Origin: Myxococcota bacterium
GTDB lineage: Bacteria; Myxococcota_A; UBA9160; UBA6930
Direction: 5' to 3'
DNA length: 64,000 bases
NCBI GenBank assembly: GCA_965223705.1
Contig: OZ245015.1
Location: forward strand, 1,184,001-1,248,000
Shown here: piece after piece, positions 11,885 through 63,449 of the stretch
Position numbering within the stretch: the stretch's first letter is position 1
Layout: every line of letters starts with the position of its first letter
Translations under genes and position numbers: made by a program
The notes under the pieces: model-generated
Seen by the model: only the letters and a program-made list of their open reading frames with translations
What the model was told of the DNA's origin: nothing
Database searches by the model: none

Positions 11885-11898
11885 AACGGTCCTAAGGT

Positions 11899-12174: not shown

Positions 12175-12221
<47 letters not shown>

Positions 12222-12479
12222 CGACTTCCCCACTGTCTCAACCAGGGACTCAGCGAAAATGAATTGCCGGTGAAGATGCCGGCGACCCGCGGCAGGACGG
12301 AAAGACCCCGTGCACCTTTACTACAACTTCGCAGTGATCATCGATTTAGCACGTGTAGGATAGGTGGGAGGCTTTGAAGCCGGGACGCCAGTCTCGGTGG
12401 AGCCAACCTTGAAATACCACCCTTGTTGTGTTGCTGATCTAACCTAGGCCCGTTATCCGGGTCGGGGACATTGCGTGGT

Positions 12480-12526
<47 letters not shown>

Positions 12527-12667
12527 GCGAAGGTTCTCTCACGCTGATTGGAAACCAGCGGAAGAGTGCAAAGGCATAAGAGAGCCTGACTGCGAGACAG
12601 ACATGTCGAGCAGGTGGGAAACCAGGTCTTAGTGATCCGGTGGTTCCGTATGGAAGGGCCATCGCTT

Positions 12668-12700
<33 letters not shown>

Positions 12701-12707
12701 TATCTCT

Positions 12708-12769
<62 letters not shown>

Positions 12770-12779
12770 GTGGAGCAGC

Positions 12780-12813
<34 letters not shown>

Positions 12814-12829
12814 CACGCGAGCTGGGTTT

Positions 12830-12875
<46 letters not shown>

Positions 12876-12888
12876 GATTTGAAGGGAG

Positions 12889-12933
<45 letters not shown>

Positions 12934-12978
12934 CCGGTTGTTCCGCCAGGAGCACCGCCGGGTAGCCATGTTCGGATG

Positions 12979-13011
<33 letters not shown>

Positions 13012-13246
13012 CACCCTAAGATGAGATCTCCCTGGAACTTCGGTTCCCTGAAGGGCCGTCCGAGACGAGGACGTCGATAGGTCGGAGGTGGAAGCGCAGC
13101 AATGTGTGGAGCTGACCGATACTAATCGCCCGTGAGGCTTGACCAAAGCCTTTGCAGTCGGCGCGACCCATGAGATGAACGTGACCCAGAAAGCTATTTG
13201 GTTGATCAAAGACCGGCGGCACGAGCCGCGGTTTTGAACACGGTTT

Positions 13247-47628: not shown

Positions 47629-48392
47629 CGCATCGTCGTGTAACCGCCGTCGACGGCGAGTGTCTGGCCCGTGACCATTCGTGCGGCGTCACCGGCGAGG
47701 TAGATCACCGCCGCCGCCATTTCGTAGGGCTCCGCGAGACGGCCCATCGGGACTTTCTCGAGATGGCGCGCGAAGTCCGGGTTCTTGACGGCCTCTTCGA
47801 GGAGCGGCGTCCGCGTAAAGGTGGGAGCGACACAATTGACGGTGATTTGGTGGGTCGCCCACTCGCCGGCGAGAGACCGCGTCATTTGGTGGACCGCACC
47901 TTTCGCGGCGCCGTAAGGCACGCGCTGCGGCGCGCCGATAATGCCCGCCTGGGACGTGATCGAAATGACGCTTCCGGGAATGCCCGCCTCGATCATGCGT
48001 CTGCCGTTCGCGAGGGTCATGCGCAGGGTGCCCTTGAAGTTCACGTCGATGATTTCGTCGAGTTCGTTGTCGTCGTACGCGATGGCGTCTTTGGGCGTAT
48101 TGATGCCGGCGTTGTTGACGAGCACGTCCACGCGGCCGAACGCGCTCCACGCGCTTTCCGTAAAGGACGCGATACTCGCCGCGTCTCCGATATCGAGTCG
48201 AAACGCCTCGGCCCGGACACCCGCTTCCCGGCAGCTCTTCGCGACGGCTTCGCATTCGGAGACGTTCCGGCTCCCCAGAACGACGTCGCCTCCAAAAGCC
48301 GCCACTTCTGTGGCGATGGACTTACCGATTCCCCGGCCGGCACCGGTGACGATGACGGTCTTTCCCGAGAGATCAAAGCGCACTTGATTCAA
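47625..48392 (-). CDS. short-chain dehydrogenase/reductase
   Basis: TGAGRGIG, NNAG, YGAAK, VDGG; overlaps the ligD stop. Confidence 0.9.
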   Translation of the reverse strand: MNQVRFDLSGKTVIVTGAGRGIGKSIATEVAAFGGDVVLGSRNVSECEAVAKSCREAGVRAEAFRLDIGDAASIASFTESAWSAFGRVDVLVNNAGINTPKDAIAYDDNELDEIIDVNFKGTLRMTLANGRRMIEAGIPGSVISITSQAGIIGAPQRVPYGAAKGAVHQMTRSLAGEWATHQITVNCVAPTFTRTPLLEEAVKNPDFARHLEKVPMGRLAEPYEMAAAVIYLAGDAARMVTGQTLAVDGGYTTMR

Positions 48393-50929
48393 TTCGTTGC
48401 TCCTTCGGCTGAGACACCTTCGAGGTGTTCGACGAGCGACTGAAGTAGGCGCCCGAGATCGAGCGACGCCGACAACAGATCCTGCATCGGGTCGCCGCGC
48501 TGCGCCATTTGGCGGGGCGTGCGGACCACGTTCCAGCGGTTCGGATCGAGACGGCGCGTGACCTGCCCCCAGGTGAGCGGCGTCGAAACCGGCGCACCGG
48601 GGAGCGGCCGAACGGAGAACGGCGCGGCGATGAGCTTACCGCGGCCGTTTTGCAGGTAGTCGACGTAGACCTTGTCCCCGCGCGCCGCCACGGGTCGCGT
48701 CACCGTCGCGATCTCCGGAAGCTCCGCGCACAACACCCGCGCGAGAATTTCGGCGAGGTGCTTCGCTTCTTCGTGACCGATCGCTTCCGCTCCAGCCAGC
48801 GGAACGAGGATGTGGAGGCCCGCCTGGCCGGAAGTTTTCACGAAGTGGGGTGTCGCGAGTTCGGTCAGCAAGCGGTGTGCGACACGAGCGATCTCGACCA
48901 CGTGACGAAACGGCGCCTCCTTCGGATCGAGATCGAGGATCAACCAGTCGGGGCGGTCGAGCCGCCCGCGGCGGGCGGTCCAGACGTGGAGCGGGATCGC
49001 GCCGGAGTTGATGACATAGAGCAGGGTGCGAAGATCGTTGCAAATGAAGTAGTCGGTGTCGTCGATAGGTTCTCGCGTCACCCACGGCGGAGTAAACTCC
49101 GGCGCATTCTTTTGATAGAAGTGCTTGCCGTCGATGCCGTCCGGGTAGCGGGTGAGAACCACCGGTCGGTCGCGCAAGTATGGGGCGAGCCAGGGCCAGA
49201 TCGTTTCGTAGTAGCGAAGGAGATCGCCCTTCGTGTACCCGTCGACTGGCCAAAACACTTTATCGAGTCGCGTGAGGTTGGGCTCCGCGGGTTCTGACTT
49301 CGCAATCGGAGAAGCATTGCGATCGGCGGCGCGGGTTTCCGGGGCCGCGCACGTCTCCGGCGCAACGTCGTCGCGCCACTCGAGGAACACCGGGTGGCGC
49401 ATGACGCCGGCGTTCGTGAGCTCCGTATAGCGGCCTTCGCAGACCAGAAGTGGCTCGAGGAGCCGCGTGCCGCGCGGCAGGGGCGCAGGGAGCCCCTGCA
49501 CCGTCGAAGTGTCTCGCTCGTGATCCGCTGCGAACGACAAGGCGCGGGAAACGGAATCTTCGCTGAGTCCCGATCCCAAGTTCCCGGCATACGTGAGCAC
49601 GCCGTCGCGGTACCAGCCGCACATGAGGGAGCCGAGTGCCTTGCGCGAGCCTTTGCCGGGCGAAATGCCGACGACCACGAGATTCGCGGTGCGCGGGATC
49701 TTGAGTTTTTGCCAATCGGGGGATCGTTGACCGGATCGATACGGAGAATCCATCCGCTTCGCGACGACGCCTTCGAGGCCAAAGTCTCGTGCGGCTTCGT
49801 ACAGGCGTTCGCCATCGACTTCGACGTGATCGGCGAAGCGCACAACGCCGCGCTGGGGGCAGAACTCGGCGAGGATTTCCTTTCGCTTGACGAGCGGCAA
49901 CCCGCGCAGATCCCGACCGAGGACAGACAGAGCGTCGAATGCCACGAACGTCACCGGGAGCTCTGCCGCAGCAGCCGCGACTCCATCGGGGTCGGTCTGC
50001 GTAAAACGCCGCTGGATTTTTTCGAATGAGCTGCGCCCCGAGTTGTCAAACACCGCGATCTCACCGTCGATGGCGAACTCGTCGATGGGTACGTGGCGAA
50101 GCGCATTCACGAGCTCGGGATAGAGCGCCGCGCGATCGGCGCCGCTCCGCACGCGGAGCGTGACGTCATCGCCCCGTCGGATGGCGACCGCGCGCACCCC
50201 ATCGACCTTGAGCTCGAACAACCAACCCGCCCGCGAAAAGGGGCCGTCTCCTCGTGCTGCCAACATGGGCGCGTAGTCGTCACCACCGAGCTCTCGATTG
50301 CGAACGCCTCGCTTCGGTAGAGCCGCTTCGACTTCGTCTTTTCGCGTGACGCCCTGCGCGACTTCCTCGACGCGCAGCCCGCTGAAGACCGACTCCGGTG
50401 CCCGCATGGCTTCCGCAGCGGACGCGTCGAGCGCGCGGCCCTTTCGGAAAAGGAGCCAGTCGCGACCTTCACCGCGCTTCGTCTGCACCAGAGCGAAACG
50501 CCCGCGCAGTTTGTGTCCGTCGATTTCGAGGTCGAGCTTTCCGGCATCGAGAGCAGCGGCGGGACTCCGCCCGTCGACGCTTCGATAGACGCCGCAGTCC
50601 CAGACGATCATCGCCCCGGCGCCGTAGTTTCCTTCGGGGATGACGCCCTCGAAAGCCGCGTATTCGATCGGGTGGTCTTCGGTCCGAACGGCGAGACGCT
50701 TTTCCTCGGGATCGATGCTGGGTCCTTTGGGCACCGCCCAGCTGACCAGAACGTCACCGATTTCGAGACGTAAATCCCAGTGGAGCTGTCTGGCCGCATG
50801 TTGCTGTACGACAAACCGATAAGAAGCGTCGGGGGCGCGCCGCAGGGGAGGGCGCTCCTCGCCGAACGGTTCGGGAGTGCGTGTGGCGTCGCGCTTCGCG
50901 CGATATGCACGGAGATCTCGCGGGCTCAA
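48389..50929 (-). CDS. ligD: NHEJ DNA ligase D (phosphoesterase-ligase-polymerase)
   Basis: PE: FVVQQHAARQLHWDLRLE, SWAVPKGPS; LIG: ELKVDGVR, EGVVAK; POL: RYPDG, PDWLILDLDP, KTSG..GLH, YVDYLQN. Confidence 0.95.
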   Translation of the reverse strand: MSPRDLRAYRAKRDATRTPEPFGEERPPLRRAPDASYRFVVQQHAARQLHWDLRLEIGDVLVSWAVPKGPSIDPEEKRLAVRTEDHPIEYAAFEGVIPEGNYGAGAMIVWDCGVYRSVDGRSPAAALDAGKLDLEIDGHKLRGRFALVQTKRGEGRDWLLFRKGRALDASAAEAMRAPESVFSGLRVEEVAQGVTRKDEVEAALPKRGVRNRELGGDDYAPMLAARGDGPFSRAGWLFELKVDGVRAVAIRRGDDVTLRVRSGADRAALYPELVNALRHVPIDEFAIDGEIAVFDNSGRSSFEKIQRRFTQTDPDGVAAAAAELPVTFVAFDALSVLGRDLRGLPLVKRKEILAEFCPQRGVVRFADHVEVDGERLYEAARDFGLEGVVAKRMDSPYRSGQRSPDWQKLKIPRTANLVVVGISPGKGSRKALGSLMCGWYRDGVLTYAGNLGSGLSEDSVSRALSFAADHERDTSTVQGLPAPLPRGTRLLEPLLVCEGRYTELTNAGVMRHPVFLEWRDDVAPETCAAPETRAADRNASPIAKSEPAEPNLTRLDKVFWPVDGYTKGDLLRYYETIWPWLAPYLRDRPVVLTRYPDGIDGKHFYQKNAPEFTPPWVTREPIDDTDYFICNDLRTLLYVINSGAIPLHVWTARRGRLDRPDWLILDLDPKEAPFRHVVEIARVAHRLLTELATPHFVKTSGQAGLHILVPLAGAEAIGHEEAKHLAEILARVLCAELPEIATVTRPVAARGDKVYVDYLQNGRGKLIAAPFSVRPLPGAPVSTPLTWGQVTRRLDPNRWNVVRTPRQMAQRGDPMQDLLSASLDLGRLLQSLVEHLEGVSAEGATN

Positions 50930-50993
50930 CGGGCCCTATGTTAGGTTCACCGGCCCGCTTCCCGCGAACTTGCCCCTCCCCGAGGTACCCCGA

Positions 50994-51878
50994 ATGGCAG
51001 CTCGAGCGACGGCCTCCGGAACGATCAGCTTCGGCTTGGTTTCGATCCCCGTAAAGCTCTACACGGCGGCGAGCTCCAAAGCCGTGCGCTTCAACATGCT
51101 CGATCCCTCCGACCATTCGCGGGTGAAGCAGCAGTACGTAAACGCCACGAGCGGGGAAGTGGTCGAACGGACCGCCCTGGTCAAAGGCTACGAGTACGCC
51201 CGCGGCCAATACGTCGTGATGTCGGAAGAGGAGTTGAAAGAGCTCGAAGCGAAGAGCGATCGGTCGATCGAGATCGAAGCGTTCGTCCCGATCGAGAGCG
51301 TCGACCCGGTCTACTTCGAGAAGTCGAACTTGCTCGGTCCGGACAAGGGCGGCCAAAAGGCGTACCGACTGCTCAATCAGGCGATGAACAAGATGGGCGT
51401 CGTGGCGGTGGGGCGCTTTGCGACGCGCGGTCGGCGACAGCTCGTGTTGATCCGGCCGCTCGGCGAGGGCCTGGTGCTCCAGGGTTTGTACTACGCCGAC
51501 GAAGTGCGTCGCTTCGACGATATCGAATTCGGCGACGCCGTTGAGATCAAGAAGACAGAGCTCGACCTCGCCGAACAGCTCGTTGAACAACTCACGCAGA
51601 AGAGTTTCCGAGCCGACGCGTACGAAGACGACTACCGCAAGGCCGTGCTCGACGCCGTCGATCGGAAAGTCGCCGGGGAAGAGTTCGTGGTCGTCCGCGA
51701 AGAAGAAGAACGCGAGCAGATCATCGATCTCGTCGCCGCGCTCAAAAAGAGTATCGAAGAGCGAGGCGACGGGGGCACAGCCACTTCCGCGACCGGTCGA
51801 CCGCGGAAGGCGGCGAAGTCAAAAGGCAAGTCCACGAAGAAAACGGCGAAGGCGAGTCGCAAGCGCGCTGCAAAGTAA
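50994..51878 (+). CDS. ku: NHEJ protein Ku
   Basis: GTISFGLVSIPVKLY, VKGYEY, IIDLVAALKKS, Lys-rich tail; GAGG RBS. Confidence 0.95.
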   Translation: MAARATASGTISFGLVSIPVKLYTAASSKAVRFNMLDPSDHSRVKQQYVNATSGEVVERTALVKGYEYARGQYVVMSEEELKELEAKSDRSIEIEAFVPIESVDPVYFEKSNLLGPDKGGQKAYRLLNQAMNKMGVVAVGRFATRGRRQLVLIRPLGEGLVLQGLYYADEVRRFDDIEFGDAVEIKKTELDLAEQLVEQLTQKSFRADAYEDDYRKAVLDAVDRKVAGEEFVVVREEEEREQIIDLVAALKKSIEERGDGGTATSATGRPRKAAKSKGKSTKKTAKASRKRAAK

Positions 51879-51900
51879 ATCGGCGCGCTAGACTCGCCGC

Positions 51901-52710
51901 GTGAGCCGGACGCTTTCCACGGCCGAGGCCGCCCGCATCACGGGCCTGAGTGAAGTGCAAGTGCGTCGCATCGCCCGCTCCGGGCTGCGGCGGCCGGCGC
52001 GCTCCAGCCGGCGCTACGCGTTTACGTTTCAAGATCTCGTCGTGCTGCGCGCGGCCCAGACGTTGATCGAGTCCGGAGTCGCCCCGGGACGCACCGCGCG
52101 TGTGCTGTCCGATCTCGCCGCCGCACTGCCCGGCGAGCGCGCACTCTCGGCGGTGCGTGTGTACGCCGAAGGACGCCGGGTCGCCGTGCGGGATGAAGCC
52201 GGCGCGTGGGACGCCGAAACCGGGCAAGTGCTTCTCGATTTCGACGTGGCGGATTTTGCCGAGGCGACGGGTCCGGCCTTCCGCGTTGGCGGTGCGGACG
52301 ACGACGCGTCTCCGTTCGATCGTGCCCTCGATCTGGAGGAGTCCGATCCCAAGGCCGCCGCCGAGGCATACCGCGAGGTCCTGCGGCTCGCGCCGGATCA
52401 TATCGACGCTCATGTCAATCTCGGCAGGCTCTGCCACGAAGCGGGCGATCTGGAAGGAGCCGAGGCGCTCTACCGCGAAGCGTTCGAGCTGTGCCCGGAC
52501 GATCCGGTCGTCCTCTTCAACCTGGCCCTCGTGCTCGAGGACGCCCGTCGGCTCGAGGAGGCCGTCGCTTGCTATCGCGAAGTCCTACAGATCGATCGTG
52601 ATTTCAGTGACGCGCACTTCAACATCGCGAGTCTCTTCGAAGAGCTGCAGCGCCCCGCCGAGGCGCTGCGCCACTATCGCGACTACCAGCGTTTGCGCGA
52701 TCGGGATTGA
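51901..52710 (+). CDS. MerR-type HTH + tetratricopeptide repeat protein
   Basis: STAEAARITGLSEVQVRR and FTFQDLVVLR (MerR-like), GQVLLDF, three to four TPR repeats. Confidence 0.8.
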   Translation: MSRTLSTAEAARITGLSEVQVRRIARSGLRRPARSSRRYAFTFQDLVVLRAAQTLIESGVAPGRTARVLSDLAAALPGERALSAVRVYAEGRRVAVRDEAGAWDAETGQVLLDFDVADFAEATGPAFRVGGADDDASPFDRALDLEESDPKAAAEAYREVLRLAPDHIDAHVNLGRLCHEAGDLEGAEALYREAFELCPDDPVVLFNLALVLEDARRLEEAVACYREVLQIDRDFSDAHFNIASLFEELQRPAEALRHYRDYQRLRDRD

Positions 52711-52756
52711 GCGCGATCCGTTAAACTGATGTCCCCCTCTATAAGGAGCCTCCCCC

Positions 52757-53623
52757 ATGAAGTTCGGCGTCTTCTTCTCCTCCGTCGGTCCGTTTGTTCA
52801 GCCCGACAATCTCGCTCACCTAGCCCGGACGGCAGAGACCACCGGTTTTGAGTCGATGTGGAGCGTCGAGCACGTGGTGATCCCGGTGGGCTACGAGTCC
52901 GCCTATCCGTATGACAAGAGCGGCCGGATCCCGATGCCCGAAGACGTCCCGTTGGCCGATCCGCTGCTTCCTTTCGCCTACGCCGCCGCCGTCACGAAGA
53001 CGCTGAAGTTCGGCAGTGGCGTCTTGATTCTTCCGCAACAGCATCCGCTCTACGTGGCGAAGCAAGCGGCTACGCTCGACCAGCTGACCCAGGGGCGATT
53101 CCTGATGGGCGTCGGGATCGGCTGGCTCGAAGAAGAGTTCGATGCACTGGGCATTCCGTTCTCGGAGCGCGCTCCGCGAACCGAAGAAGCGATTCAGGCG
53201 ATCCGCTCGCTCTGGAAAGACACGCCCGAGGCGTTCGACGGGAAGTTCTACAAGTGGGGGCCGGTACATTCCCAGCCGAAGCCCGCTCAGCAAGGCGGCG
53301 TTCCCATCATCGTCGGCGGCCATGTGGCCGGCGCGGCGCGGCGTGCGGCTCGCTACGGCGACGGCTTCTTCCCCGGAACGTTCGATGCCGAGTCCTTGGC
53401 CAAGGCGCTCGCGGTGATGAAGGACGAGTGCGGCAAGATCGATCGCGATCCTTCCGAGATCGAGATCACGGCGGGTGTCGCGGGAGATGCCGTAGACACG
53501 ATCAAGCGCTGCGAAGACATGGGCGTGTCTCGGGTCCTCATGTTGGATTTTCCCGGTGGTACCCAGGACGAAGTCTCTGCGAACCTCGAGCGCTACGGGA
53601 ACGAGGTCATCGCAAAGGTTTGA
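52757..53623 (+). CDS. LLM-class (probably F420-dependent) oxidoreductase
   Basis: GFESMWSVEH, AKQAATLDQL..GRF.MGVGIGW..EEF, PIIVGG; AAGGAG RBS. Confidence 0.87.
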   Translation: MKFGVFFSSVGPFVQPDNLAHLARTAETTGFESMWSVEHVVIPVGYESAYPYDKSGRIPMPEDVPLADPLLPFAYAAAVTKTLKFGSGVLILPQQHPLYVAKQAATLDQLTQGRFLMGVGIGWLEEEFDALGIPFSERAPRTEEAIQAIRSLWKDTPEAFDGKFYKWGPVHSQPKPAQQGGVPIIVGGHVAGAARRAARYGDGFFPGTFDAESLAKALAVMKDECGKIDRDPSEIEITAGVAGDAVDTIKRCEDMGVSRVLMLDFPGGTQDEVSANLERYGNEVIAKV

Positions 53624-53662
53624 TCGCGACCCGAACGTGAGCGACGTACCGAGCGAGCGGAT

Positions 53663-54439
53663 GTGAGCGAAGCACTTTCGGGTGGCGGCTCACCCGGGCG
53701 CCCCTACCGCAATCCCAATCCCGGTGCGGATTGGCCCATCCTCGATTGGTTGTCCGATCTTCGGGGCCGTCTGTTTCGGATCATCCTGCTGGGTCTCGTC
53801 GCCACGGTCGTCGCGTGGGGGTTCCGCGAGGAGATCTTCCGACTCCTCCTCCGTCCGGCGACGCGCGCCCTCGGTAGCGAGGGCGCGCTGCAGGCGATCG
53901 CCCCGACCGAGATCTTCTTCACGTACCTAAAGGCGTCGCTTCTCGCGGGATTCATCGCGATCATCCCGGTCTTCTTCTGGGAACTTTGGCAATTCGTTCG
54001 CAAGGCGACCGGGGGGGGTCGTTCCTGGACGACGCTCGCGTTCGCACTCGCATCGACGATCTTGTTCGCATCGGGGGTGGCGTTCGGCCATTTCTTGGTG
54101 TTCCCCCTGGTCTTCGATTTCTTCGCGTCGTTTTCGTCCTCTTACGTCGAAGCGGCGTGGACGATGCGGGAAGTCTTCAACCTGTCGATTCGACTCATCT
54201 TGGCGTTCGGCATCGGTTTCGAGCTCCCGCTGCTCACCTTCTTCCTCGCCGCAACGGGAATCGTCTCTCCCGAGCGCCTGCTGCGCTTCACGCCCTACGG
54301 CATCCTCGTGGCCTTTGTCCTGGCCGCGATTCTCACGCCGCCCGACGTCATCAGCCAGCTCTTGTTGGCTGCGCCGTTGTCGGTGCTCTACTTGATCGGT
54401 GTCGGCGCCGGAATGCTGGTGGCGCGCCGAGGGTCCTGA
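53663..54439 (+). CDS. tatC: TatC-family protein (degenerate signal-binding motifs)
   Basis: LRGRL, PTEIFFTYLK, FGIGFELP, AAILTPPDVISQLLLAAPL..LY; six TMs. Confidence 0.85.
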   Translation: MSEALSGGGSPGRPYRNPNPGADWPILDWLSDLRGRLFRIILLGLVATVVAWGFREEIFRLLLRPATRALGSEGALQAIAPTEIFFTYLKASLLAGFIAIIPVFFWELWQFVRKATGGGRSWTTLAFALASTILFASGVAFGHFLVFPLVFDFFASFSSSYVEAAWTMREVFNLSIRLILAFGIGFELPLLTFFLAATGIVSPERLLRFTPYGILVAFVLAAILTPPDVISQLLLAAPLSVLYLIGVGAGMLVARRGS

Positions 54440-54443
54440 GGCC

Positions 54444-56378
54444 TCAGGCGTCCGAAGGATCGCGGAGTGCGCGCACCGGGGCGAGCCGGCCCGAAGCGGC
54501 GAGCGCTTCGGCAATGCAGCGCCGCAGTGCGACGTCGCCGAAGGGTTTGGGCAAGAAGTGAGGGAACCCATCGGGAAGGGGCCGTTCGCTGGCGAACCCG
54601 CTGGTCAGAATGATTGCCGCTTCGCACCCGTCCCGTCTCAACCGCTCCGCGATAACGAGTCCGGAAATGTCCGGAAGCGTGATGTCGATGAGGATCGCAT
54701 CGAACGCGGCCTGCGGTGCGGCGATGGCTTCCAGGCCTTCGCGTGCGGTTTCTGCGGTGACGACTACACAGCCGGCTAGCTCGAGAATCCGGGAAGCGAT
54801 CTCGCGGACGGAGACCTCGTCGTCGATGATGAGAACCCGCGCGTAGATCTTTTCGTGGCGCTTGGGAGAGCCGGTCTCTTCCGCTTGCGCGTGTTCCGGA
54901 TCGCGAAGCGGGAACAACGCGCGAAAGGTCGTCCCGCGCCCGACCTCGCTTTCGACTTCGAGAATGCCGCCATGGGCCCGAACAATCCCGATCACCGCCG
55001 AAAGCCCGAGACCGCGACCCTGGCCCTTGGTCGTGAAGAAAGGATCGAACATGCGCTCGCGGGTATCGGCGTCGACGCCGTGGCCTTCGTCGCGAACACA
55101 GAGTTCGGCGTACCAGCCCGGCCGCGCGTCCTGGGCGCCCAGGTGGCCGGCCAATCGCGCAGTGCCAACCTCGACGGGCCGGGTTGAAATCCAGACCGCC
55201 CCGTCGCCTCCGGCGAGGGCTTCCGCACCGTTCAAGATCGCGTTGAGTCCCATTTGAAGGACCTCGATCTCGTTGCCGAGAATCGGCAGCGGCGTCGGGT
55301 GAAGATCGATCGAGAGTCGCGTGCCCTTCCCGAGCGAAGGGCGCGCGAGCGAAGCCGATTCGCGCACCACCTGGGACAGGTCGAGGTCCGACGGGCTCTC
55401 GAGTGTCCTCCCGCCGTAGGTCAGGATCCGTTCGCAGAGCTGTCCCGCCCGCTCCGCGAGAACGCCGATTTCGTGCGCGTACCCGGAGGGCTCGGAGTCT
55501 TCGGGAAGCGCGCGCCCGAGCAGATCGGCGTAGCCGAGAATCCCCGTCAAGAGGTTGTTGAAGTCGTGTGCGATACCTCCGGCGAGCACTCCCAGACTTT
55601 CGAGTTTCTGCACCTGTCGCAGGTGACGCTCCGACTCGCGGATCGATTCTTCGCGTTCGCGCTGCTCGGTAACGTCGAGGGCCGTGCTGAGCACGGACCG
55701 AACGTCGCCCTGGGGGCCGAGGCCAAACACGGAATCCCACGTGTGGATGCGGCGCCATTGTCCGTGGGCATTCTGAATCCGGTACTCACTCTCGATGACG
55801 GCGCCTTCCTCGGCCTCGCCGAGTTGTTGGGCGACGGAATAGAAGAGGCCCAGGTCTTCGGGATGAATGCGCTCAGTGAGCAGTCGCAGCCCGCCTTTCT
55901 CCATTTCCGCTTCGGTCAGCCCGTGGAGTTCTTGCCAGCGCACGTTCGCGAAGGCGGTGGTCTGCTTCTCGAGATCGAAGATCGACACCAGGTTGGGACC
56001 CAGATCGGTAATGCGCCGAGCCATCGGTTCTTGGAGGCCTGCGGGAGACGTCGAGACCTCGGAGTAGATCGCGAAGCCGTCGTCGGTTTCCACGCGGTGG
56101 ACGCAGCAGGGAAGCGGCGGGGGCGACGCCCCTTCGCCCGGGCTGTCGTCCGACGCGTGGGGCAGGTGGGTGCGGGCGTAATCGATCAGGGACTGGGTAC
56201 GGGAAGGCCCGAGTTGCGAAAACGCGGCATTTGCGAACGCGAGCTCGCCGTCGGACCGCAGCCAAAAGAGAGGCGCGGCGAGCGCATCGTAGGCGGTACG
56301 CGCGAGCTCGAAAGCTTCGCCGCTGCCCTCGGCGACCACGACTTGCGCCATCACTTCCAGCGCGTTTTCGCCTCTCAT
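54444..56378 (-). CDS. cytoplasmic PAS hybrid histidine kinase (PAS-HisKA-HATPase-REC)
   Basis: IHPED/EYRI PAS-PAC, LAGGIAHDFNNLL, DEGHG, FDPFFTTK.GRGLGL, C-terminal receiver (IDDE, D.TLP, KP). Confidence 0.92.
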   Translation of the reverse strand: MRGENALEVMAQVVVAEGSGEAFELARTAYDALAAPLFWLRSDGELAFANAAFSQLGPSRTQSLIDYARTHLPHASDDSPGEGASPPPLPCCVHRVETDDGFAIYSEVSTSPAGLQEPMARRITDLGPNLVSIFDLEKQTTAFANVRWQELHGLTEAEMEKGGLRLLTERIHPEDLGLFYSVAQQLGEAEEGAVIESEYRIQNAHGQWRRIHTWDSVFGLGPQGDVRSVLSTALDVTEQREREESIRESERHLRQVQKLESLGVLAGGIAHDFNNLLTGILGYADLLGRALPEDSEPSGYAHEIGVLAERAGQLCERILTYGGRTLESPSDLDLSQVVRESASLARPSLGKGTRLSIDLHPTPLPILGNEIEVLQMGLNAILNGAEALAGGDGAVWISTRPVEVGTARLAGHLGAQDARPGWYAELCVRDEGHGVDADTRERMFDPFFTTKGQGRGLGLSAVIGIVRAHGGILEVESEVGRGTTFRALFPLRDPEHAQAEETGSPKRHEKIYARVLIIDDEVSVREIASRILELAGCVVVTAETAREGLEAIAAPQAAFDAILIDITLPDISGLVIAERLRRDGCEAAIILTSGFASERPLPDGFPHFLPKPFGDVALRRCIAEALAASGRLAPVRALRDPSDA

Positions 56379-56501
56379 GCTCTTTTTGTTGCGGATAATA
56401 AAGTCATTTAAAAACAGTTACTTAGAAAAAAATTAACGCTTCCGTGAAAGTTGCCGATACGGGGTTTTGTACTGAGTAATTGAAATTCTAAAGGAGCCCA
56501 C
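56379..56501. promoter_or_regulatory. AT-rich divergent promoter region between the kinase and scyA
   Basis: Runs such as TTTAAAAACAGTTACTTAGAAAAAAATTAA in otherwise GC-rich DNA; AAGGAG RBS before scyA. Confidence 0.6.
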
Positions 56502-58286
56502 GTGTCCGAGCACCCGAATCCCGAAAGCGTACTGGATCCCGAACGCCCGCTCCCTGGTTGGGATGGGGCCAAGACCGTCTCCGGACTCAAGGACATTCCT
56601 CTCCTCGCGGAACAACAAACGCAGGAGCCTCGAGAATGCCGTGTGGCCGATGCCCTGGTCGGCGCCTTCGCCGACATGGGAATCCGCCGGGCCTACGGCG
56701 TTTCGGGCGGCGCGATGGCGACGTTCTGGGAAGCGCTCACCTTGAGCGACCTCTCGGTGCTCCATTTCCGTCACGAAGGTGGGGCCGCTTTCGCAGCGAT
56801 CGAGGCCCACTTCGCCTCGGACGAACCGGTGCTGCTTTTCACGACGGCGGGTCCGGGCATTACGAACGCCCTGACGGGGATCCTCGCCGCGAAAGGAGAG
56901 GGCGCGAAAATCGTGATGGTTTCCGCGTGCACGCCGGCCGGTCAGCGCGGCCGCTTCGGCACACAGGAAACCGACTTTCAAACCTTGCCCGCATCCGGGA
57001 TTTTTTCGTCCGGTCCACTTTTCGATTGCGCCGAAGTCATCGAGAGCGCCGATCAACTGCCGCAACTGGTGCGCCGACTGAAGAGTGGGCTCGAGGGCCC
57101 GGGCGGGTTCACCGCTCACGTGAGCTTGACGACCCGTGTTCAGACGGAAGCGGCGCCGCGAGAGTTCGCATCGATCACCCGAGCGCCGGCACCTGAGAGC
57201 GATCGCGGTAGTGCGGCCGACGTCGCCGCGCGACTCGCGGGAAAGCGCTTCGCCCTCTGGGTCGGGTTCGGAGCACGTCACGCTTCGCGCGAGATCGTTC
57301 GCTTTGCCGAGCGCTACGGCACGCCTGTGTTCGCTACGCCTCGCGGAAAGGGCGTTTTTCCCGAGTCGCATCTGCTTTACACGGGCGTGACGGGCCTCGG
57401 TGGTCACACCAGTGTCGCGGAGACGCTGTCGAGCTACGCACCGGAGTTCGTGCTGGTCCTCGGCACCCGTCTACACGAATCGAGCTCGTTCTGGTCCGGC
57501 GACTATGCGCCGCCCGGTGGCTTCATCCACGTCGACGTGGATCCTACGGTTCCCGGACAGGCTTACTGCGATCAGCCCACCGTCGTCGTACAGGCCGAGA
57601 TCGCCGCGTTCCTCGCGGTCCTCACCGAAGAGCTCGGCGATGCGTCGCCCGATGATGACTGGCTTCCGCGCAAGCCGATCCCGGCGAACCCCGGCACTTC
57701 GCAACCCGGACGCGTGCGCCCCGAGTTCCTGATGGAGGCGATTCAATCCGGCGTCATCGACGACACGGACGCCATCGTGATCGCAGAGTCCGGCAACTCG
57801 TTCATCTGGAGCCAGCACCACCTGTCGTTCGATCAGCCGCGTCGGTATCGCGCGAGTACCCAGGTCGGCTCGATGGGTCACGCCGTCGCTGGTGTGGTCG
57901 GCGCGGCCCACGCCACGGGTCGGAAGGCCGTCGCCATCACCGGCGATGGGTCCATGCTCATGAACAACGAGATCAGCACGGCGGTCGCGCACGGCATTCC
58001 GGCGGTCTGGGTCATCCTGAACGACGGCCATTACAACATGTGTCGCCAGGGAATGGCGTCCCTCGGTCTGTCGCCTGCGGATACCGCGATTCCGCCGACG
58101 GATTTCGTCGGGATCGCGCGGGCGATGGGGGCGGACGGTCTGCGCGTCGGGTGCGAAGACGATCTCAAGACCGCCTTCGACCGCGCCCTCTCCTCGAACC
58201 GGCCGTTCGTGTTGGACGTCCTGGTAGACGTCGACGCCCAGGCGCCGTCGCACGGTCGCAATCGCCGCCTCGCGGCCCAACGCTAG
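56502..58286 (+). CDS. scyA: ScyA-like ThDP-dependent acyloin synthase
   Basis: GVSGGAMAT.W, FRHE.GAAFAA.EA, TTAGPGITNALTG, GEGAK, QRGR..QET, AESGNSF.W, GSMGHAV.GVVG, GDGSMLMNNEISTAV; matches my recollection of cyanobacterial ScyA; adjacent to scyC. Confidence 0.8.
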   Translation: MSEHPNPESVLDPERPLPGWDGAKTVSGLKDIPLLAEQQTQEPRECRVADALVGAFADMGIRRAYGVSGGAMATFWEALTLSDLSVLHFRHEGGAAFAAIEAHFASDEPVLLFTTAGPGITNALTGILAAKGEGAKIVMVSACTPAGQRGRFGTQETDFQTLPASGIFSSGPLFDCAEVIESADQLPQLVRRLKSGLEGPGGFTAHVSLTTRVQTEAAPREFASITRAPAPESDRGSAADVAARLAGKRFALWVGFGARHASREIVRFAERYGTPVFATPRGKGVFPESHLLYTGVTGLGGHTSVAETLSSYAPEFVLVLGTRLHESSSFWSGDYAPPGGFIHVDVDPTVPGQAYCDQPTVVVQAEIAAFLAVLTEELGDASPDDDWLPRKPIPANPGTSQPGRVRPEFLMEAIQSGVIDDTDAIVIAESGNSFIWSQHHLSFDQPRRYRASTQVGSMGHAVAGVVGAAHATGRKAVAITGDGSMLMNNEISTAVAHGIPAVWVILNDGHYNMCRQGMASLGLSPADTAIPPTDFVGIARAMGADGLRVGCEDDLKTAFDRALSSNRPFVLDVLVDVDAQAPSHGRNRRLAAQR

Positions 58287-58297
58287 GAGCCCATCCG

Positions 58298-59248
58298 ATG
58301 GAAAAGAACACGTTTGCTACGTCGGCCTACATCGACGCACCGATGGACGACATCTTCGCCTACCTCGGCGATCTAAAGAATCTCGGTGAGTGGACACTGT
58401 TCAGCAAAATGCAGGAGCAGGTCGACGACGACACCTGGATCGGAACCGCGTCGGGCTACCAAAGCGAGCTCTACTACCACGTGCGTCGCTTCGAAAGCTC
58501 GAAGTTCCGTGGCATCGAGTGGCACTGCGGGCTCACCTACAACGAGTACCACCAGGTCTACCCGGTGTTGCTGTTTCCGTCGCAGTACATCGATCCCGCG
58601 TCCACCGAAACCGGTGCGTACTTCCATTGGGTGAGCTTCGTCGATCCCAAACGCCGAACGCGTATGATCAAAGAAGGCATCGATACGGTGCACAATTCCG
58701 AGTGTCGCTCTCTCAAAGCGAACCTCGAGCGCAAGGCCGGCCATAGCGGAGCCGTTCCCGCGAACTACCGCATCGAGACCGACACTATCTTCGTGGACGC
58801 GCCCGTCGCGATCGGCGTCAATTTCCTGCAGGACATCTCGCACGTCGCCGAATGGGCGCATTTGCTGACCCCCGAGAATCCGAACGATCCCGGTGCCGGG
58901 AAGTTTCTCGACGAGTACGGGCAGCGCGTCGAGGCGAGTGTGCATGTGCGCGAGATGGGTGGCTACTTCCTGCTCGAGCAAGACTTCGCCTACACCGACA
59001 GCCACTTCGTGCAGCGCTGCCCGGCGATCCTCATTCCGTGTTCGTACGCGTTCGGCGACAATTCGGCCTTGGGATTCCTGCTGCACCGCATCGCCTTTTT
59101 TCCCGAAGGCGAGAAGCTTCGCAACGGTCACTTGACGATCGATGACTACGGAGCCGAGAGCATCAACATCAAACGCATGATCGAAGCGCGCGCGGGAAAC
59201 CTGAAGAGCTTCGGGGAGGGTCGAAGCTACCGACCGGACTTGCCCTAG
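58298..59248 (+). CDS. scyC: ScyC-like cyclase/decarboxylase
   Basis: MEKNTFATSAYI, EWTL.S.M.EQ.D.DTW.GTASGY, GIEWHCG, QVYPVLLFP, HW.SFVDPKR, ECRSLKANLERKAG, GAES.NIKR..EA.AGNLKSF recalled as near-diagnostic for ScyC; AGGAG RBS. Confidence 0.85.
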   Translation: MEKNTFATSAYIDAPMDDIFAYLGDLKNLGEWTLFSKMQEQVDDDTWIGTASGYQSELYYHVRRFESSKFRGIEWHCGLTYNEYHQVYPVLLFPSQYIDPASTETGAYFHWVSFVDPKRRTRMIKEGIDTVHNSECRSLKANLERKAGHSGAVPANYRIETDTIFVDAPVAIGVNFLQDISHVAEWAHLLTPENPNDPGAGKFLDEYGQRVEASVHVREMGGYFLLEQDFAYTDSHFVQRCPAILIPCSYAFGDNSALGFLLHRIAFFPEGEKLRNGHLTIDDYGAESINIKRMIEARAGNLKSFGEGRSYRPDLP

Positions 59249-59499
59249 CGCGGAGGATCGCTCGGCTCAGGTGCTGCGCGGCCTACGGCCCGTTCCGCGT
59301 GCCTCCGGACGGCCGCGAGCCACCGCCGCGCGAAGGCGAACTCGAGGGACAAGATGGCGAGTCCGGCCGGGATGACCACAAACGCGGGGCCCGGCAGCAC
59401 CAGGAGTGCGATCCCCACGAGGAGGACGGTCACGCCTACGACGGTGACGACGACCCGCCGAGCCGTCTTGTAGCTCGCTTCTAAAAACTTCTGGAACAC
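59245..59499 (-). CDS. PGPGW-family small membrane protein
   Basis: GIALLVLPGPAFVVIPAGLAILSLEF.FARRWL. Confidence 0.8.
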   Translation of the reverse strand: MFQKFLEASYKTARRVVVTVVGVTVLLVGIALLVLPGPAFVVIPAGLAILSLEFAFARRWLAAVRRHAERAVGRAAPEPSDPPR

Positions 59500-59606
59500 G
59501 CTGACCCTGATACGAAATGAGCGGTCGGAACGTTCGTTTCCCCGTGGGGGCAGGGATCTTCCCGCGCCCGCTGCGGTATTATGGGAACTCATCCTGGAGG
59601 AAGCGA

Positions 59607-61013
59607 ATGCGAGGACTCGCCGCTTACGGCGTCTATCTACCCCACTATCGACTCGACCGGAACCGGATCAAGGGCACCTTGGGGCAGGGAGGCGGAAAGG
59701 GGACCCGAGCCGTCGCTTCCTACGACGAAGACACGACGTCGATGGGCGTCGAGGCGGCGCGAGCCTGCCTCTCGAGCGTCGACGTAGTCCCCGAGCGCCT
59801 CTTCTTCGCGACGGCGAACCCGGCGTATCAGGACAAGACGAACGCGACGACCATCCACGCGGCCCTCGATCTCCCCCGCAACGCTTTCGCCGGTGACGCG
59901 ACGGGTTCGGTGCGCTCGAGCGTCGTCGCTGCCATGGCCTCCGTCGGTTCCCAGGGCCCCGCGCTCGCGGTCGCGGCAGACCTTCGCGTCGGCCTACCGT
60001 CCGGCAAAGACGAATCCGAAGGGGGGGACGCCGCCGCCGCGCTGCTCTTCGCCGACGACGGCGACACCCCGGTGATCGCGGAAATGCTCGGTCGGGCGAG
60101 TAGCACCGGGGAGTTCCTCGATCGCTGGCGAACGCCCGGCGACCCGGCCTCGAAGGTTTGGGAAGAACGCTACGGCGAAGCCATCTATCTCGATCACGTC
60201 AAGGAAGCGACGCAGGAAGCGCTCGCTGCTGCCGGGATCAGCGCAGATCAACTGTCGAAGGTGGTCATCTCGGGCCTTCACAGCCGCGCGGTTCGAGGGG
60301 CGGCGCGCACGATTGGGGCGAAGCCCGAGGCGTACGTCGACGACCTGACCGGCGTAATCGGCAATACCGGCTCGGCGCATCCCTATCTCCTGCTGGCATC
60401 CGTCCTCGACACGGCGGAGCCGGGACAGACGATCGCACTGGTCGTCCTCGCCGACGGCTGCGACGTCGCGATCTTGCGCACGACCGATGCGATCGCGAGC
60501 TACCAGCCCGCCCGCACGGTCGCCGAGAGCGTCGCCGGCGGCGGCGACGATCTCGACTACGCGCTCTACCTCTCCTGGCGAGGATTCCTCAACCGCGAGC
60601 CCCCGCGCCGACCCGACCCTGTGCGCCCGGCGGCTCCGCCGGCGGGGCGCGCCGAGGACTGGAAGTTCGCCTTCGTCGGCTCTCGCGACCGGAAGAGCGG
60701 TGCGATCCACTTGCCGCCGCAACGCACGTCGATGAAGGGCGGTAACGTCGATGACATGGAGCGGGTCCGTATGGCCGATGTACCCGCCACGATTGCTACC
60801 TTTACCATCGATCGCCTGGCGTATTCGCCGAGCCCGCCGATGGTGGTGGCCGTGATCGATTTTGACGGTGGGGGCCGGTTCCGCTGCGAGATGACCGATG
60901 TCGATCCGAATCAGGTCAAGATCGGCGATCGGGTACAGATGACGTTCCGCAAGCTCTTCACCGCAGACGGTGTGCACAACTACTTCTGGAAGGCTCGCCC
61001 GATCTCGGGCTGA
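59607..61013 (+). CDS. HMG-CoA-synthase/KASIII-like domain fused to a DUF35 OB-fold
   Basis: YGVYLPHYRL, RAVASYDEDTTSMGVEAA, GGDAAAA, IGNTGSAHP; C-terminal TFTIDRLAYSPSPP...DFDGGGR...IGDRV.MTFR...NYFWKARP; GGAGG RBS. Confidence 0.85.
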   Translation: MRGLAAYGVYLPHYRLDRNRIKGTLGQGGGKGTRAVASYDEDTTSMGVEAARACLSSVDVVPERLFFATANPAYQDKTNATTIHAALDLPRNAFAGDATGSVRSSVVAAMASVGSQGPALAVAADLRVGLPSGKDESEGGDAAAALLFADDGDTPVIAEMLGRASSTGEFLDRWRTPGDPASKVWEERYGEAIYLDHVKEATQEALAAAGISADQLSKVVISGLHSRAVRGAARTIGAKPEAYVDDLTGVIGNTGSAHPYLLLASVLDTAEPGQTIALVVLADGCDVAILRTTDAIASYQPARTVAESVAGGGDDLDYALYLSWRGFLNREPPRRPDPVRPAAPPAGRAEDWKFAFVGSRDRKSGAIHLPPQRTSMKGGNVDDMERVRMADVPATIATFTIDRLAYSPSPPMVVAVIDFDGGGRFRCEMTDVDPNQVKIGDRVQMTFRKLFTADGVHNYFWKARPISG

Positions 61014-61025
61014 GAGGAGACCACA

Positions 61026-62216
61026 ATGGCTTCTAAGGGAATCAAAGACCGTGTCGCAATCGTCGGTATGGGCTGCACGCCTTTCGGCGAGCACTGGGAT
61101 AAGAGCGCAGACGACTTGCTCGTCGATGCGACGGAAGAATGTTTCGCGAGCTCGGGCATCGATAAGTCCGACGTCGACGCCTATTGGTTTGGCACCATGG
61201 CGTCGGGCGTTTCGGGGCTCGCGCTTTCCGCGCCGCTCCAGCTCGACTACAAGCCCGTGACACGGCTCGAGAACATGTGCGCCACGGGTTCCGAGGCGAT
61301 TCGCAATGCCGCTTATGCCGTAGCGTCGGGCGCGTACGACATCGTGATGGCGGCCGGCGTCGAGAAGCTCAAGGACTCCGGCTACTCGGGCCTCGTCGTC
61401 CAGGATCCGCCGAACGATGGGACGCTCCCGGCGATGACGCCGCCGGCCACGTTCAGCCTGCTCGCCCCGGCGTACCAGGAAAAGTACGGCCTGACGGATG
61501 AAGAGCTGCGCGACGCGTTGGCGCACATCGCTTGGAAGAACCACGCGAACGGCGCACTGAACCCGCGCGCCCAGTTCCAGAAAGAAGTTCCGAAAGACGC
61601 GATCTGCCAGTCACCGTTGGTCGCCGGAAAGCTCGGCATCTTCGATTGCTCGGGCGTTTCCGACGGTTCGGCCTGCGCGATCTTGGTGCGCGAGGAAGAC
61701 GCGCACAAGTACACGGACAAGCCGCTCTACATCAAGGCGCTGTCCTTCGCGTCGGGCCCGGCCACCGGCGGGATCGATTCGAGCTACGACTACACCACGT
61801 TCCGCGAGGTCGTCGCTTCCGCCGAGGATGCCTACCAGCAAGCGGGAGTTACGAACCCCCGAGCAGAAATCGCCATGGCAGAAGTTCACGACTGCTTTAC
61901 ACCGACCGAGATGGTGTTGATGGAGGACCTCCAGTTCTGCCCGCGCGGCACGGCTTGGAAGGAGGCCCTCGACGGTACGTTCGATCTCCACGGCGAGCTG
62001 CCGATCAACCCCGACGGAGGGTTGAAGAGCTTCGGCCACCCGATCGGCGCTTCCGGCCTTCGCATGATGTTCGAAAACTGGCTCCAGCTCCGGAAAGAAG
62101 CGCCGGCGGATCGCCAGATCGACAACGGCAAGACGCTCGGCATGACCCACAACCTGGGCGGCCAGCCCGGCGCCTGCGTCTCCTTCGTTTCGATCGTGGG
62201 AGCCGAGAAGGGCTAA
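61026..62216 (+). CDS. SCP2-type thiolase / acetyl-CoA acetyltransferase
   Basis: ENMCATGSEA, DCSGVSDG, EVHDCF, NPDGGLKSFGHPIGASG, HNLGG. Confidence 0.9.
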   Translation: MASKGIKDRVAIVGMGCTPFGEHWDKSADDLLVDATEECFASSGIDKSDVDAYWFGTMASGVSGLALSAPLQLDYKPVTRLENMCATGSEAIRNAAYAVASGAYDIVMAAGVEKLKDSGYSGLVVQDPPNDGTLPAMTPPATFSLLAPAYQEKYGLTDEELRDALAHIAWKNHANGALNPRAQFQKEVPKDAICQSPLVAGKLGIFDCSGVSDGSACAILVREEDAHKYTDKPLYIKALSFASGPATGGIDSSYDYTTFREVVASAEDAYQQAGVTNPRAEIAMAEVHDCFTPTEMVLMEDLQFCPRGTAWKEALDGTFDLHGELPINPDGGLKSFGHPIGASGLRMMFENWLQLRKEAPADRQIDNGKTLGMTHNLGGQPGACVSFVSIVGAEKG

Positions 62217-62245
62217 AGCGCACGCGACCGTGTGGCAACGAACCG

Positions 62246-62283
62246 GGGGGCCGGAGCGTCGCGCTCCGGCCCCCGTTCTTTTT
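62246..62283 (+). terminator. hairpin with U-tract (terminator-like) after the thiolase
   Basis: GGGGGCCGGAGCG-TCG-CGCTCCGGCCCCC followed by GTTCTTTTT. Confidence 0.7.
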
Positions 62284-62297
62284 GACGAGGGGAACCC

Positions 62298-63449
62298 ATG
62301 GCACACCGAAACGCCTACATGACCGATGAGCTGCAAGCGATCTACGATCAGACGGTTTCGTTTGTCGAGAAGGAGGTCATGCCCGAAGGCACGGCGTGGG
62401 AAGAAGCCGGCAAGGTTCCGCGGGATGTGCTCCGCAAGATGGGGAGCCTCGGCATGTTCGGGCTTCGCGTTCCCGAAGAGCTGGGAGGTGTCGGGCTCGG
62501 CCCGCTCGCATCGGCCGCATTCTCCGAGGCCTTGGGCGCTTCGACGTTCGCCGGCTTCGACGTGACCGTGCTGGTTCACACCGACATGGCGGGTCCTCAC
62601 CTGGTCAATTCCGGCAGTCGCGCGCAGTGGGAACGTTATCTGCCGGCGGCGTTGTCCGGGGAGCTCATCCTCTCGATCGCCGTGACGGAGCCCGACGCGG
62701 GATCGGACGTGGCGGGCATTCGCTCGACGGCTGTTCGCGACGGGGACGGCTGGCGGATCAACGGACGCAAGACGTTCATCACGAACGCGGTTTACGGCGA
62801 TCTGACGATCGCAGCGGCGCGAACGGATCCCGACAACAAGTACGGGATCTCCATGTTCTTGGTTCCGGCGGGCACCGAAGGATTCACGGTCGCCAAGAAA
62901 CTCGACAAACACGGCTGGCGCTGTTCGGATACCGCCGAGCTCGTGTTCGATGATGTGTTCGTGCCCGACGATCAACTGCTCGGTACCCCCCATCGCGGCT
63001 TCTACGAGACGATGAAGAATTTTCAGAACGAGCGGATGGTCCTGGTCGGAATGGGGATCGGAGCCGCTCAGGCCGCGATCGACATGACGCTCACGTACAC
63101 ACAAGAGCGGCGCGCGTTCTCGGGACATCTGTTCGATCTCGGCGCCATCCGCCAGCGGCTGGCGATGAATCAGGCCAAGGTCGACGCGGTCCGGGCGAGT
63201 ATGTACCACGCGGCTTGGCTGGGAGAACAAGGCGTCGACAACGTGAAAGAGATGTCGGGCGTAAAGGCGTGGGGCTGCGAAGTCGTGAACCAGGTGATGT
63301 ACGACTGCGTCCAGTTCCACGGCGGCACGGGCTTCATGAGCGAGTCGAATATCGAGCGGATGTATCGCGACGCCCGCGTTCTTCCGATCGGCGGCGGGGC
63401 CACCGAAGTGATGCTCGAAGAAGTCGCGAAACGCTCGTTGCGGGGCTAG
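62298..63449 (+). CDS. acyl-CoA dehydrogenase
   Basis: PEELGG, AVTEPDAGSD, NGRKTFITN, QFHGGTGF, IGGGATEVM. Confidence 0.93.
   Translation: MAHRNAYMTDELQAIYDQTVSFVEKEVMPEGTAWEEAGKVPRDVLRKMGSLGMFGLRVPEELGGVGLGPLASAAFSEALGASTFAGFDVTVLVHTDMAGPHLVNSGSRAQWERYLPAALSGELILSIAVTEPDAGSDVAGIRSTAVRDGDGWRINGRKTFITNAVYGDLTIAAARTDPDNKYGISMFLVPAGTEGFTVAKKLDKHGWRCSDTAELVFDDVFVPDDQLLGTPHRGFYETMKNFQNERMVLVGMGIGAAQAAIDMTLTYTQERRAFSGHLFDLGAIRQRLAMNQAKVDAVRASMYHAAWLGEQGVDNVKEMSGVKAWGCEVVNQVMYDCVQFHGGTGFMSESNIERMYRDARVLPIGGGATEVMLEEVAKRSLRG

Follow-up and report, generated by a model that had tools for sequence, protein, structure and literature searches.

The window analysed here is a stretch of 64,000 nucleotides from a Myxococcota bacterium (contig OZ245015.1, positions 1,184,001 to 1,248,000), and the subject of this report is a pair of adjacent genes in it, scyA and scyC, whose products resemble the first enzymes of scytonemin synthesis. 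Both frames are intact and lie on the + strand with 11 nt between them, and an AGGAG motif stands before each. We believe, with a rough probability of 0.55, that the pair encodes a two-enzyme pathway from indole-3-pyruvate and an aryl-pyruvate to a monomeric cyclopenta[b]indol-2-one, and not to scytonemin; every chemical step is one that we infer for this host. Judged by its sequence, the cassette is a P450-less form of a scyB-less scyAC type that is scattered among non-cyanobacteria. Non-cyanobacterial Scy homologues are already on record; what appears to be new is the scyB-less two-gene layout shared with other non-cyanobacteria.

The N-terminus of the window ScyC reads MEKNTFATSAYI, as the original prediction had written. 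The protein scores 495 bits on NCBIfam NF035924 (cut-off 400) over model positions 1-312 of 312, the level of an equivalog. The claim that it matches ScyC “very closely” is too strong, the identity to the Nostoc punctiforme NIES-2108 protein (locus L052) being 58% over 315 aa. Of the 126 columns that are near-invariant among cyanobacterial ScyC (86 sequences, conservation of at least 97%) it has 117 unchanged, which is within the range of other scyB-less ScyC, and its closest homologue, a full-length ScyC from another assembly (P0004), is 80% identical to it. The predicted model is confident (predicted local distance difference test, pLDDT, 88.7; predicted template modelling score, pTM, 0.89) and would consist of two tandem SRPBCC/Bet v1 helix-grip domains, the architecture of a di-domain cyclase. 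The top Foldseek matches are DynU16, BexL, StfQ and CqsB2 (di-domain aromatase/cyclases plus CqsB2); in a wide VIA structure search the carbazole synthase CqsB2 is the best match (Z 16.2, root-mean-square deviation 2.3, 145 residues; next row Z 13.5), and a sequence search of the PDB with ScyC gave no match. The likeness to CqsB2 fits a cofactor-free pocket that would close a ring on indole, a fold alone showing no function.

The window ScyA has three TPP domains, the catalytic Glu (RHE92) and the GDG...N cofactor motif, and is thus a thiamine diphosphate (ThDP)-dependent carboligase of the acetohydroxyacid synthase (AHAS)-like kind. It scores 747 bits on the NCBIfam ScyA model NF035923 (cut-off 1020) and 697 bits on the “ScyA-related” model NF035927 (cut-off 1000), and every other model scores at most 190 bits; the other scyB-less ScyA tested likewise remain under the NF035923 cut-off (787-922 bits). 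The motifs GGAMA, ESGNSF, VGSMGH and YNMC are retained, so that the four diagnostic motifs carry ScyA-type and not ScyA-related residues; the ScyA-related motifs AFQE and FGxMGH are not present, the motifs found being ScyA-type or private. Departures from canonical ScyA are W152F/A153G/I154T, P327S/T328S and T438Q; among the private changes RFGTQE for RWAIQE and LHESSSFW for LGEPTSFW stand out. The closest solved relatives are BbmA (E 1e-53) and CsmA (E 1e-41), and the closest homologue, a partial ScyA from another assembly (P0220), is 76% identical. The earlier identification as ScyA is supported, at an identity of 50% over 602 aa to the same Nostoc locus.

A two-gene operon in host-like codons had been proposed, and this is what we find: GC content at third codon positions (GC3) is 0.77 in scyA and 0.80 in scyC, against 0.34-0.58 in three cyanobacterial scyC genes, and the codon-adaptation percentiles are 0.46 and 0.83 among 2254 long open reading frames (ORFs), i.e., the codons of the cassette are fully host-like. 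It was also correctly stated that no scyB, scyD, scyE, scyF or ebo gene lies beside the cassette in the window; tatC and a hybrid histidine kinase of the PAS type border it on the left, the PGPGW gene and a thiolase module on the right, and the gene 3' of scyC is the convergent PGPGW gene and not a P450. The overlap of AGGAG with the scyA stop codon suggests that the translation of scyC is coupled to that of scyA, and the 123-nt AT-rich spacer (Table 1) is the probable promoter region for both the kinase and scyA; no sigma-70 promoter or intrinsic terminator consensus was found at the cassette. The divergent kinase, which the original prediction had missed as part of the same indel as scyA and scyC, may control the expression of the cassette. 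Its alignment with the cyanobacterial scy kinase is restricted to 77 aa of the ATPase domain, and on this comparison it is not an orthologue.

Table 1. Features of the cassette and its boundaries (window coordinates)
Feature	Position	Strand	Basis
scyA-like ThDP-dependent carboligase, 594 aa, GTG start	56502..58286	+	ORF, profile search
scyC cyclase/decarboxylase, 316 aa	58298..59248	+	ORF, profile search, predicted structure
AAGGAG ribosome-binding motif, 5 nt 5' of scyA start	56491..56496	+	read from sequence
AGGAG motif across scyA stop codon, 8 nt 5' of scyC ATG	58285..58289	+	read from sequence
AT-rich intergenic region between divergent kinase and scyA	56379..56501	.	35-36% GC vs 64% GC in the window
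Divergent hybrid histidine kinase (PAS_3, HisKA, HATPase, receiver)	54444..56378	-	domain search
tatC, left indel boundary, outside the cassette	53663..54439	+	domain search, congener comparison
PGPGW membrane protein, right indel boundary, outside the cassette	59245..59592	-	domain search, congener comparison

The host genome (G000; 4.56 Mb, 2 contigs, 95% complete, 0.6% contamination) has no Photo_RC match, a Synechococcus control being positive. The best named relatives of its tyrosyl-tRNA synthetase (TyrRS) are “Myxococcota bacterium” (69% and 66%) and Deltaproteobacteria (65%), which is a placement by one gene and not by phylogenomics; the ten best full-length matches of the 16S gene to a plasmid collection are at about 80%. 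By the Photo_RC and TyrRS results the host is non-phototrophic and Myxococcota-like, in agreement with the non-cyanobacterial host that had been supposed, and the absence of Photo_RC, the TyrRS relatives and the host-like codons rule out a cyanobacterial host or contaminant. A chimeric contig would have told against the original prediction. It is ruled out by four assemblies (at most two samples of one study, one of which may equal the window's source), whose contigs bridge 50637-62575, 50700-63326 and 55348-63326 at even depth: X1 and X3 join the cassette to both flanks in single contigs, and X4 extends from the interior of the kinase to the right flank. All seven strain variants in scyA are synonymous. 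The cassette is real and apparently maintained.

A complete scy pathway elsewhere in this genome was likewise looked for and not found. The best match to ScyB, the tryptophan dehydrogenase of the scytonemin cluster, has 217 bits against a cut-off of 600 (36% identity, G000:C1:616126-617130, about 620 kb from the cassette), the best ScyD/E match (NF033206) 29 bits against 80 and the best ScyF match (NF035926) 57 bits against 350; the EboE profile has no match, nor has tblastn with EboC, EboE and EboF. Prephenate dehydrogenase is present, 4-hydroxyphenylpyruvate dioxygenase (HPPD) has no match at cut-off, and class I/II aminotransferases have 16 matches. Both keto acids are plausibly available to the cassette enzymes, the activity of the supply enzymes on Trp being presumed; the unlinked ScyB-like dehydrogenase would be an equal candidate with an aminotransferase as the source of indole-3-pyruvate. 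Of 14 P450 matches in the genome none is an orthologue of the cassette-type P450 described below at E<=1e-50 (best 31%, vs 56-84% among full-match loci).

Relatives were sought in two scans. Among species genomes an alignment scan brought 280 hits; the best 80 were analysed as loci, and of these 78 are titled cyanobacteria and all 80 carry scyB. The other two, L063 and L064, come from contigs under the titles Gracilibacteria and Tatlockia and have complete scy loci. In the tree their ScyC sit tightly beside those of Hydrococcus and Chlorogloea, and both contigs look cyanobacterial and misbinned. The metagenome scan gave 25 loci, with scyB in all 11 of GC below 55% and in none of the 14 of higher GC; on these short contigs there is enough 5' DNA to exclude an upstream scyB only in L094, L097, L102 and L109, and the cyanobacterial locus L069 does carry scyB upstream of scyA. 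Among the 14 high-GC loci scyA runs directly into scyC in nine, a DUF4386 gene lies between them in three, and two have no scyA within the available DNA. A P450 directly follows scyC in eight of the 14, the contig ends too early in four, and the P450 is absent in two (L105, L106). Its closest solved relative is CypX, as searched with the fused form P0126; fusions of ScyC to such a CypX/CYP134A1-like P450 are seen in P0126 (by Pfam) and P0129 (by its sequence). The DUF4386 membrane protein of L099, L104, L110 and L094, whose gene separates scyA from scyC or comes behind that of the P450, is a candidate exporter or resistance protein of the P450 form.

The layout recurs in G613, a complete myxobacterial genome in one contig from another family of the phylum, where scyC occurs in 2 of 301 genomes (G613 and G686). 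It has a bare scyA-scyC pair with 12 nt spacing, lacks a ScyB over cut-off and also a P450 of the cassette type (best 34%), in all of which it resembles the window; it differs in its flanks and in a ScyA nearer to the canonical form (922 bits on NF035923), the window proteins being 53% (ScyA) and 57% (ScyC) identical to its own. P0122, a protein with the same sequence as the ScyC of G613, carries the NCBI label ScyC of Polyangium aurulentum. In G686 (L185:195-2427) the gene before scyC encodes an acetolactate-synthase-like ThDP enzyme; it is broken into two frames and only 30% identical to ScyA. A second cyanobacterial scyC clade comprises Scytonema PCC 10023, a Crocosphaera metagenome-assembled genome and P0042 (labelled Moorea). 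At L013:4274-10933 and L069:330-6604 scyC is paired with a ScyA-related enzyme in the orders scyA-scyB-P450-...-scyC and scyB-scyA-scyC, and these variant loci probably make variant products.

Tamre and Fournier 2022 (PMC9796282) describe 71 cyanobacterial ScyC and one in Methylocaldum marinum, where ScyA and ScyB accompany it, and they mention that Myxococcales and Acidobacteria have ScyA-like proteins; in PMC6529634 and PMC10742547 we found nothing further on non-cyanobacterial scyC. M. marinum is thus like the window in being a non-cyanobacterial host of ScyA and ScyC homologues (its ScyC is 53% identical to that of N. commune) and unlike it in having a ScyB homologue (PMC9796282). Given the homologues in PMC9796282 and the label of P0122, the uniqueness earlier claimed for the window was overstated; nor does the window stand alone beside the 12 metagenome loci in which scyC follows scyA with no scyB between. 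Our searches of the open-licence PMC and bioRxiv literature brought up no paper that describes a scyAC cassette lacking scyB, or the compound made by one; the supplements of PMC9796282 may list more sequences.

As in the scyABCDEF and ebo operons of Nostoc punctiforme, a ScyA-type carboligase and ScyC share one operon with a sensor kinase upstream. Unlike there, the window has no scyB between A and C, no scyD/E/F, no ebo and no dedicated trp/aro/tyr copies, its kinase is not orthologous and its host is non-phototrophic; in the cyanobacterial set scyB always adjoins scyA, and variant products have been predicted from altered clusters (PMC6939163). The scyA-scyC(-DUF4386)-P450 metagenome loci and the ScyC-P450 fusions are likewise scyB-less and fall on the same side of the tree (SH-like approximate likelihood ratio test, SH-aLRT, 82, not firm), but the window lacks both their CypX/CYP134A1-like P450 and the DUF4386 protein and so does not belong to the P450 variant. 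The carbazole pathways (CqsB3/NzsH with CqsB2/NzsI) also employ a ThDP carboligase on indole-3-pyruvate followed by an indole ring cyclase of the Bet v1 fold, and take indole-3-pyruvate from an aminotransferase, namely CqsB7 (PMC7466098). Unlike the window, they need ketoacyl synthase III (KASIII) and an acyl carrier protein and build a six-membered ring; CqsB2 is single-domain and 18% identical to the window ScyC, without a match at the sequence level.

The chemistry is known from Nostoc. ScyA couples p-hydroxyphenylpyruvate as the donor with indole-3-pyruvate as the acceptor, and ScyC turns the coupled product, by cyclisation and decarboxylation, into a ketone of m/z 278.12, one oxidation short of the monomer; the dimerisation to scytonemin needs Ebo-dependent export and ScyE (PMC4870267, PMC6282210, PMC9822442). 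E. coli with scyABC accumulates the monomer (m/z 276.10, 407 nm; PMC4870267, PMC6282210), and because scyABC alone gives it, the monomer is the most economical inference for the window. Housekeeping enzymes would supply p-hydroxyphenylpyruvate via prephenate dehydrogenase and indole-3-pyruvate via an aromatic aminotransferase or an unlinked Leu/Phe-type dehydrogenase. The ScyA-like enzyme would then decarboxylate the aryl-pyruvate on ThDP and add it to indole-3-pyruvate to give a labile beta-keto acid, as shown for Nostoc ScyA, and the Bet v1-type pocket of ScyC would close the five-membered ring onto indole C2 and decarboxylate, as shown for Nostoc ScyC. The yellow monomer, or an aryl analogue close to it, would arise by air oxidation. 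Export and dimerisation would be missing along with ScyE and Ebo, and therefore no scytonemin would form; the divergent PAS kinase may govern the expression. The authentic scytonemin monomer is perhaps the product, which we would call possible at somewhat worse than even odds, and the rest of the 0.55 goes to a close aryl analogue. A redox, antioxidant or chemical-interaction role seems to us likelier than a sheath sunscreen, but this is a guess.

Several observations weigh against a pathway to such a monomer. The ScyA stays under both NCBIfam cut-offs; of the 220 columns with a conservation of at least 97% among 83 cyanobacterial ScyA it retains 188, a share of 0.85 compared to 0.89-0.94 in nine other scyB-less ScyA, and is the most divergent among the full-length locus-derived rows tested. 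The altered loop before its QE motif presumably lines the substrate site, if the acetolactate-synthase structure is a guide, and such lineage-specific changes may shift the substrate. The sole strain variant in scyC is non-synonymous (N255D). Ten of the scyB-less metagenome loci extend downstream beyond scyC, and eight of these have the P450 that is missing here; compared with them the window pathway could be truncated. Finally, the E. coli experiments in print included ScyB, and we found no report in the open-licence literature that ScyA and ScyC suffice.

The substrate question leads to an unlikely alternative, in which ScyA would couple another pair of keto acids (two indole-pyruvates, or an aliphatic one, as in the chemistry of NzsH and Cbei2730) and ScyC would cyclise or just chaperone another acyloin. 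The changes W152F/A153G/I154T, P327S and T438Q fall at positions of the conserved set just defined, the concatenated tree has a single long end branch, that of the window (1.39), other keto acids are taken by related enzymes (PMC9822442), and the distant, broken ThDP gene beside scyC in G686 (30% to ScyA) indicates that the partner can vary; yet the window ScyC is as conserved as in other groups, and no ScyA structure places the changed residues at the substrate, the closest solved relatives being BbmA and CsmA. To the P450 we attach another reading, on the whole improbable though slightly less so than the substrate shift: the pair would be a front end only, its cyclised ketone being oxidised, coupled or decorated to a different alkaloid by an unlinked enzyme such as a host P450. 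The CypX-like P450 directly after scyC in eight of 14 high-GC loci, the fusions P0126 and P0129 and the 14 P450 matches of the host speak for it, but no orthologue of the cassette P450 was found in G000 (best 31% vs 56-84% among full-match loci) or in G613 (34%). We regard it as very improbable that the cassette arose by an assembly error or is what is left, decaying and silent, of a cluster that was transferred. Its occurrence in one of 225 class genomes, its long branches and the absence of scyB and a P450 speak for this, but the frames are intact with ribosome-binding motifs, the codons are host-like and the seven scyA variants silent, P0004 (80%, full-length ScyC) and P0220 (76%, partial ScyA) exist in other assemblies, and the contigs X1, X3 and X4 bridge the cassette at even depth.

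The original prediction also held that the cassette bears on the origin of the pathway. That question is genuinely raised; the three ScyA analyses that were run disagree on the direction of transfer. A tree of concatenated ScyA and ScyC (23 selected rows, unrooted) splits seven scyB-less loci from 16 cyanobacterial ones (SH-aLRT 82, not firm), with the window as the only long end branch and at most 56% identical over 867 columns to any row; this identity and the host-like codons rule out a recent transfer from a sampled cyanobacterium. When a single distant ThDP enzyme serves as the root, the cyanobacterial sequences enclose a clade (99) of the scyB-less ScyA. With a Myxococcota ScyA-like outgroup (14 proteins from 13 genomes, of the 401-genome sample without other ScyC over cut-off), cyanobacteria are monophyletic (100/100) inside a scyB-less grade, and the window branches earliest, weakly (89/60). 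Amino-acid composition differs strongly between the ScyA groups, and after six-class amino-acid recoding the scyB-less proteins become a weak sister group to canonical ScyA, the window-earliest grade not being recovered. Approximately unbiased (AU) tests do not reject a single non-cyanobacterial ScyC clade (p 0.41) or a clade of cyanobacterial ScyA-related and Myxococcota proteins (p 0.29). It is tempting to propose that scyA-scyC arose in heterotrophs, where its two enzymes made an undescribed indole alkaloid of monomeric type, that the window would hold one of the deepest-branching forms alive, and that cyanobacteria later took the module over and added scyB, scyDEF and ebo for the dimeric sunscreen; the shape appears in one ScyA tree, that with the Myxococcota outgroup, its grouping is lost after recoding, and we consider the proposal doubtful. 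If it were true, scytonemin would have been elaborated from a metabolite of non-cyanobacteria, and ScyC would not serve as its diagnostic marker.

In two congeners (G001, G002) tatC abuts the PGPGW gene and is followed by the same OB-fold and thiolase genes, and in the window 4.8 kb intervene between tatC and PGPGW, namely the kinase, the AT-rich spacer, scyA and scyC. The downstream HMG-CoA-synthase-like/OB-fold and thiolase genes are therefore rejected as pathway members, since they are syntenic with tatC-PGPGW in cassette-free congeners. Because the congener genomes are small and incomplete (2.1-2.3 Mb, 75-87% complete, 48-49% GC at these loci), loss there would be as possible as gain in the window lineage. 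ScyC is present in one of the 225 genomes of the class and, over cut-off, in one of 401 sampled genomes of the phylum, in both cases the window's own, and gain is therefore favoured by the distribution; the PGPGW loci of nine non-congeners have no tatC within 1.5 kb and therefore do not polarise gain vs loss. The boundaries show no repeats beyond chance-like short pairs, and a scyC search of plasmids and viral contigs found none.

By its gene content the cassette would act as the opening half of scytonemin synthesis; a scytonemin cluster it is not, scyB, scyD/E, scyF and ebo having no match over cut-off in the genome, and we presume that the window and its scyB-less relatives probably make a related single-unit indole compound. 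ScyC, with ScyA and ScyB, serves as a genomic marker by which scytonemin is diagnosed, and for its dating versus the rise of oxygen (PMC9796282). With scyB-less scyAC scattered among non-phototrophs, a scyC hit in a metagenome is no proof of a capacity for sunscreen; the same family supplies outgroups needed for rooting the scytonemin pathway, and it points to cyclopenta[b]indole natural products not yet known, for which two genes should suffice. As G613 is a complete genome with the same layout and a ScyC labelled from a named myxobacterium, the question is directly testable.

Some minor observations may be added. ScyA-like enzymes without ScyC over cut-off occur in 13 of 400 other genomes of the phylum (L146:6672-9524 and other loci), and in G168 a KASIII-like gene adjoins the ScyA-like gene, which is reminiscent of carbazole-type clusters. 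The congeners (G001:C119 and G002:C126; L144, L145) are about half the size of the window's genome and have 48-49% GC at these loci, vs 4.56 Mb and 65% GC, and despite this gap their thiolase is 93% identical to the window's; there is strong genome reduction within the genus. In the window itself, divergent LigD-like and Ku-like genes of non-homologous end joining, recognised from the translations only, lie at 48389-51878. A group I intron (Rfam RF00028, 61 bits) splits the single 23S rRNA gene (9154-13146) and carries an ORF for a LAGLIDADG homing endonuclease at 11128-11877 on the + strand (PF00961, E 4e-18); the feature also takes in 11889-12120.

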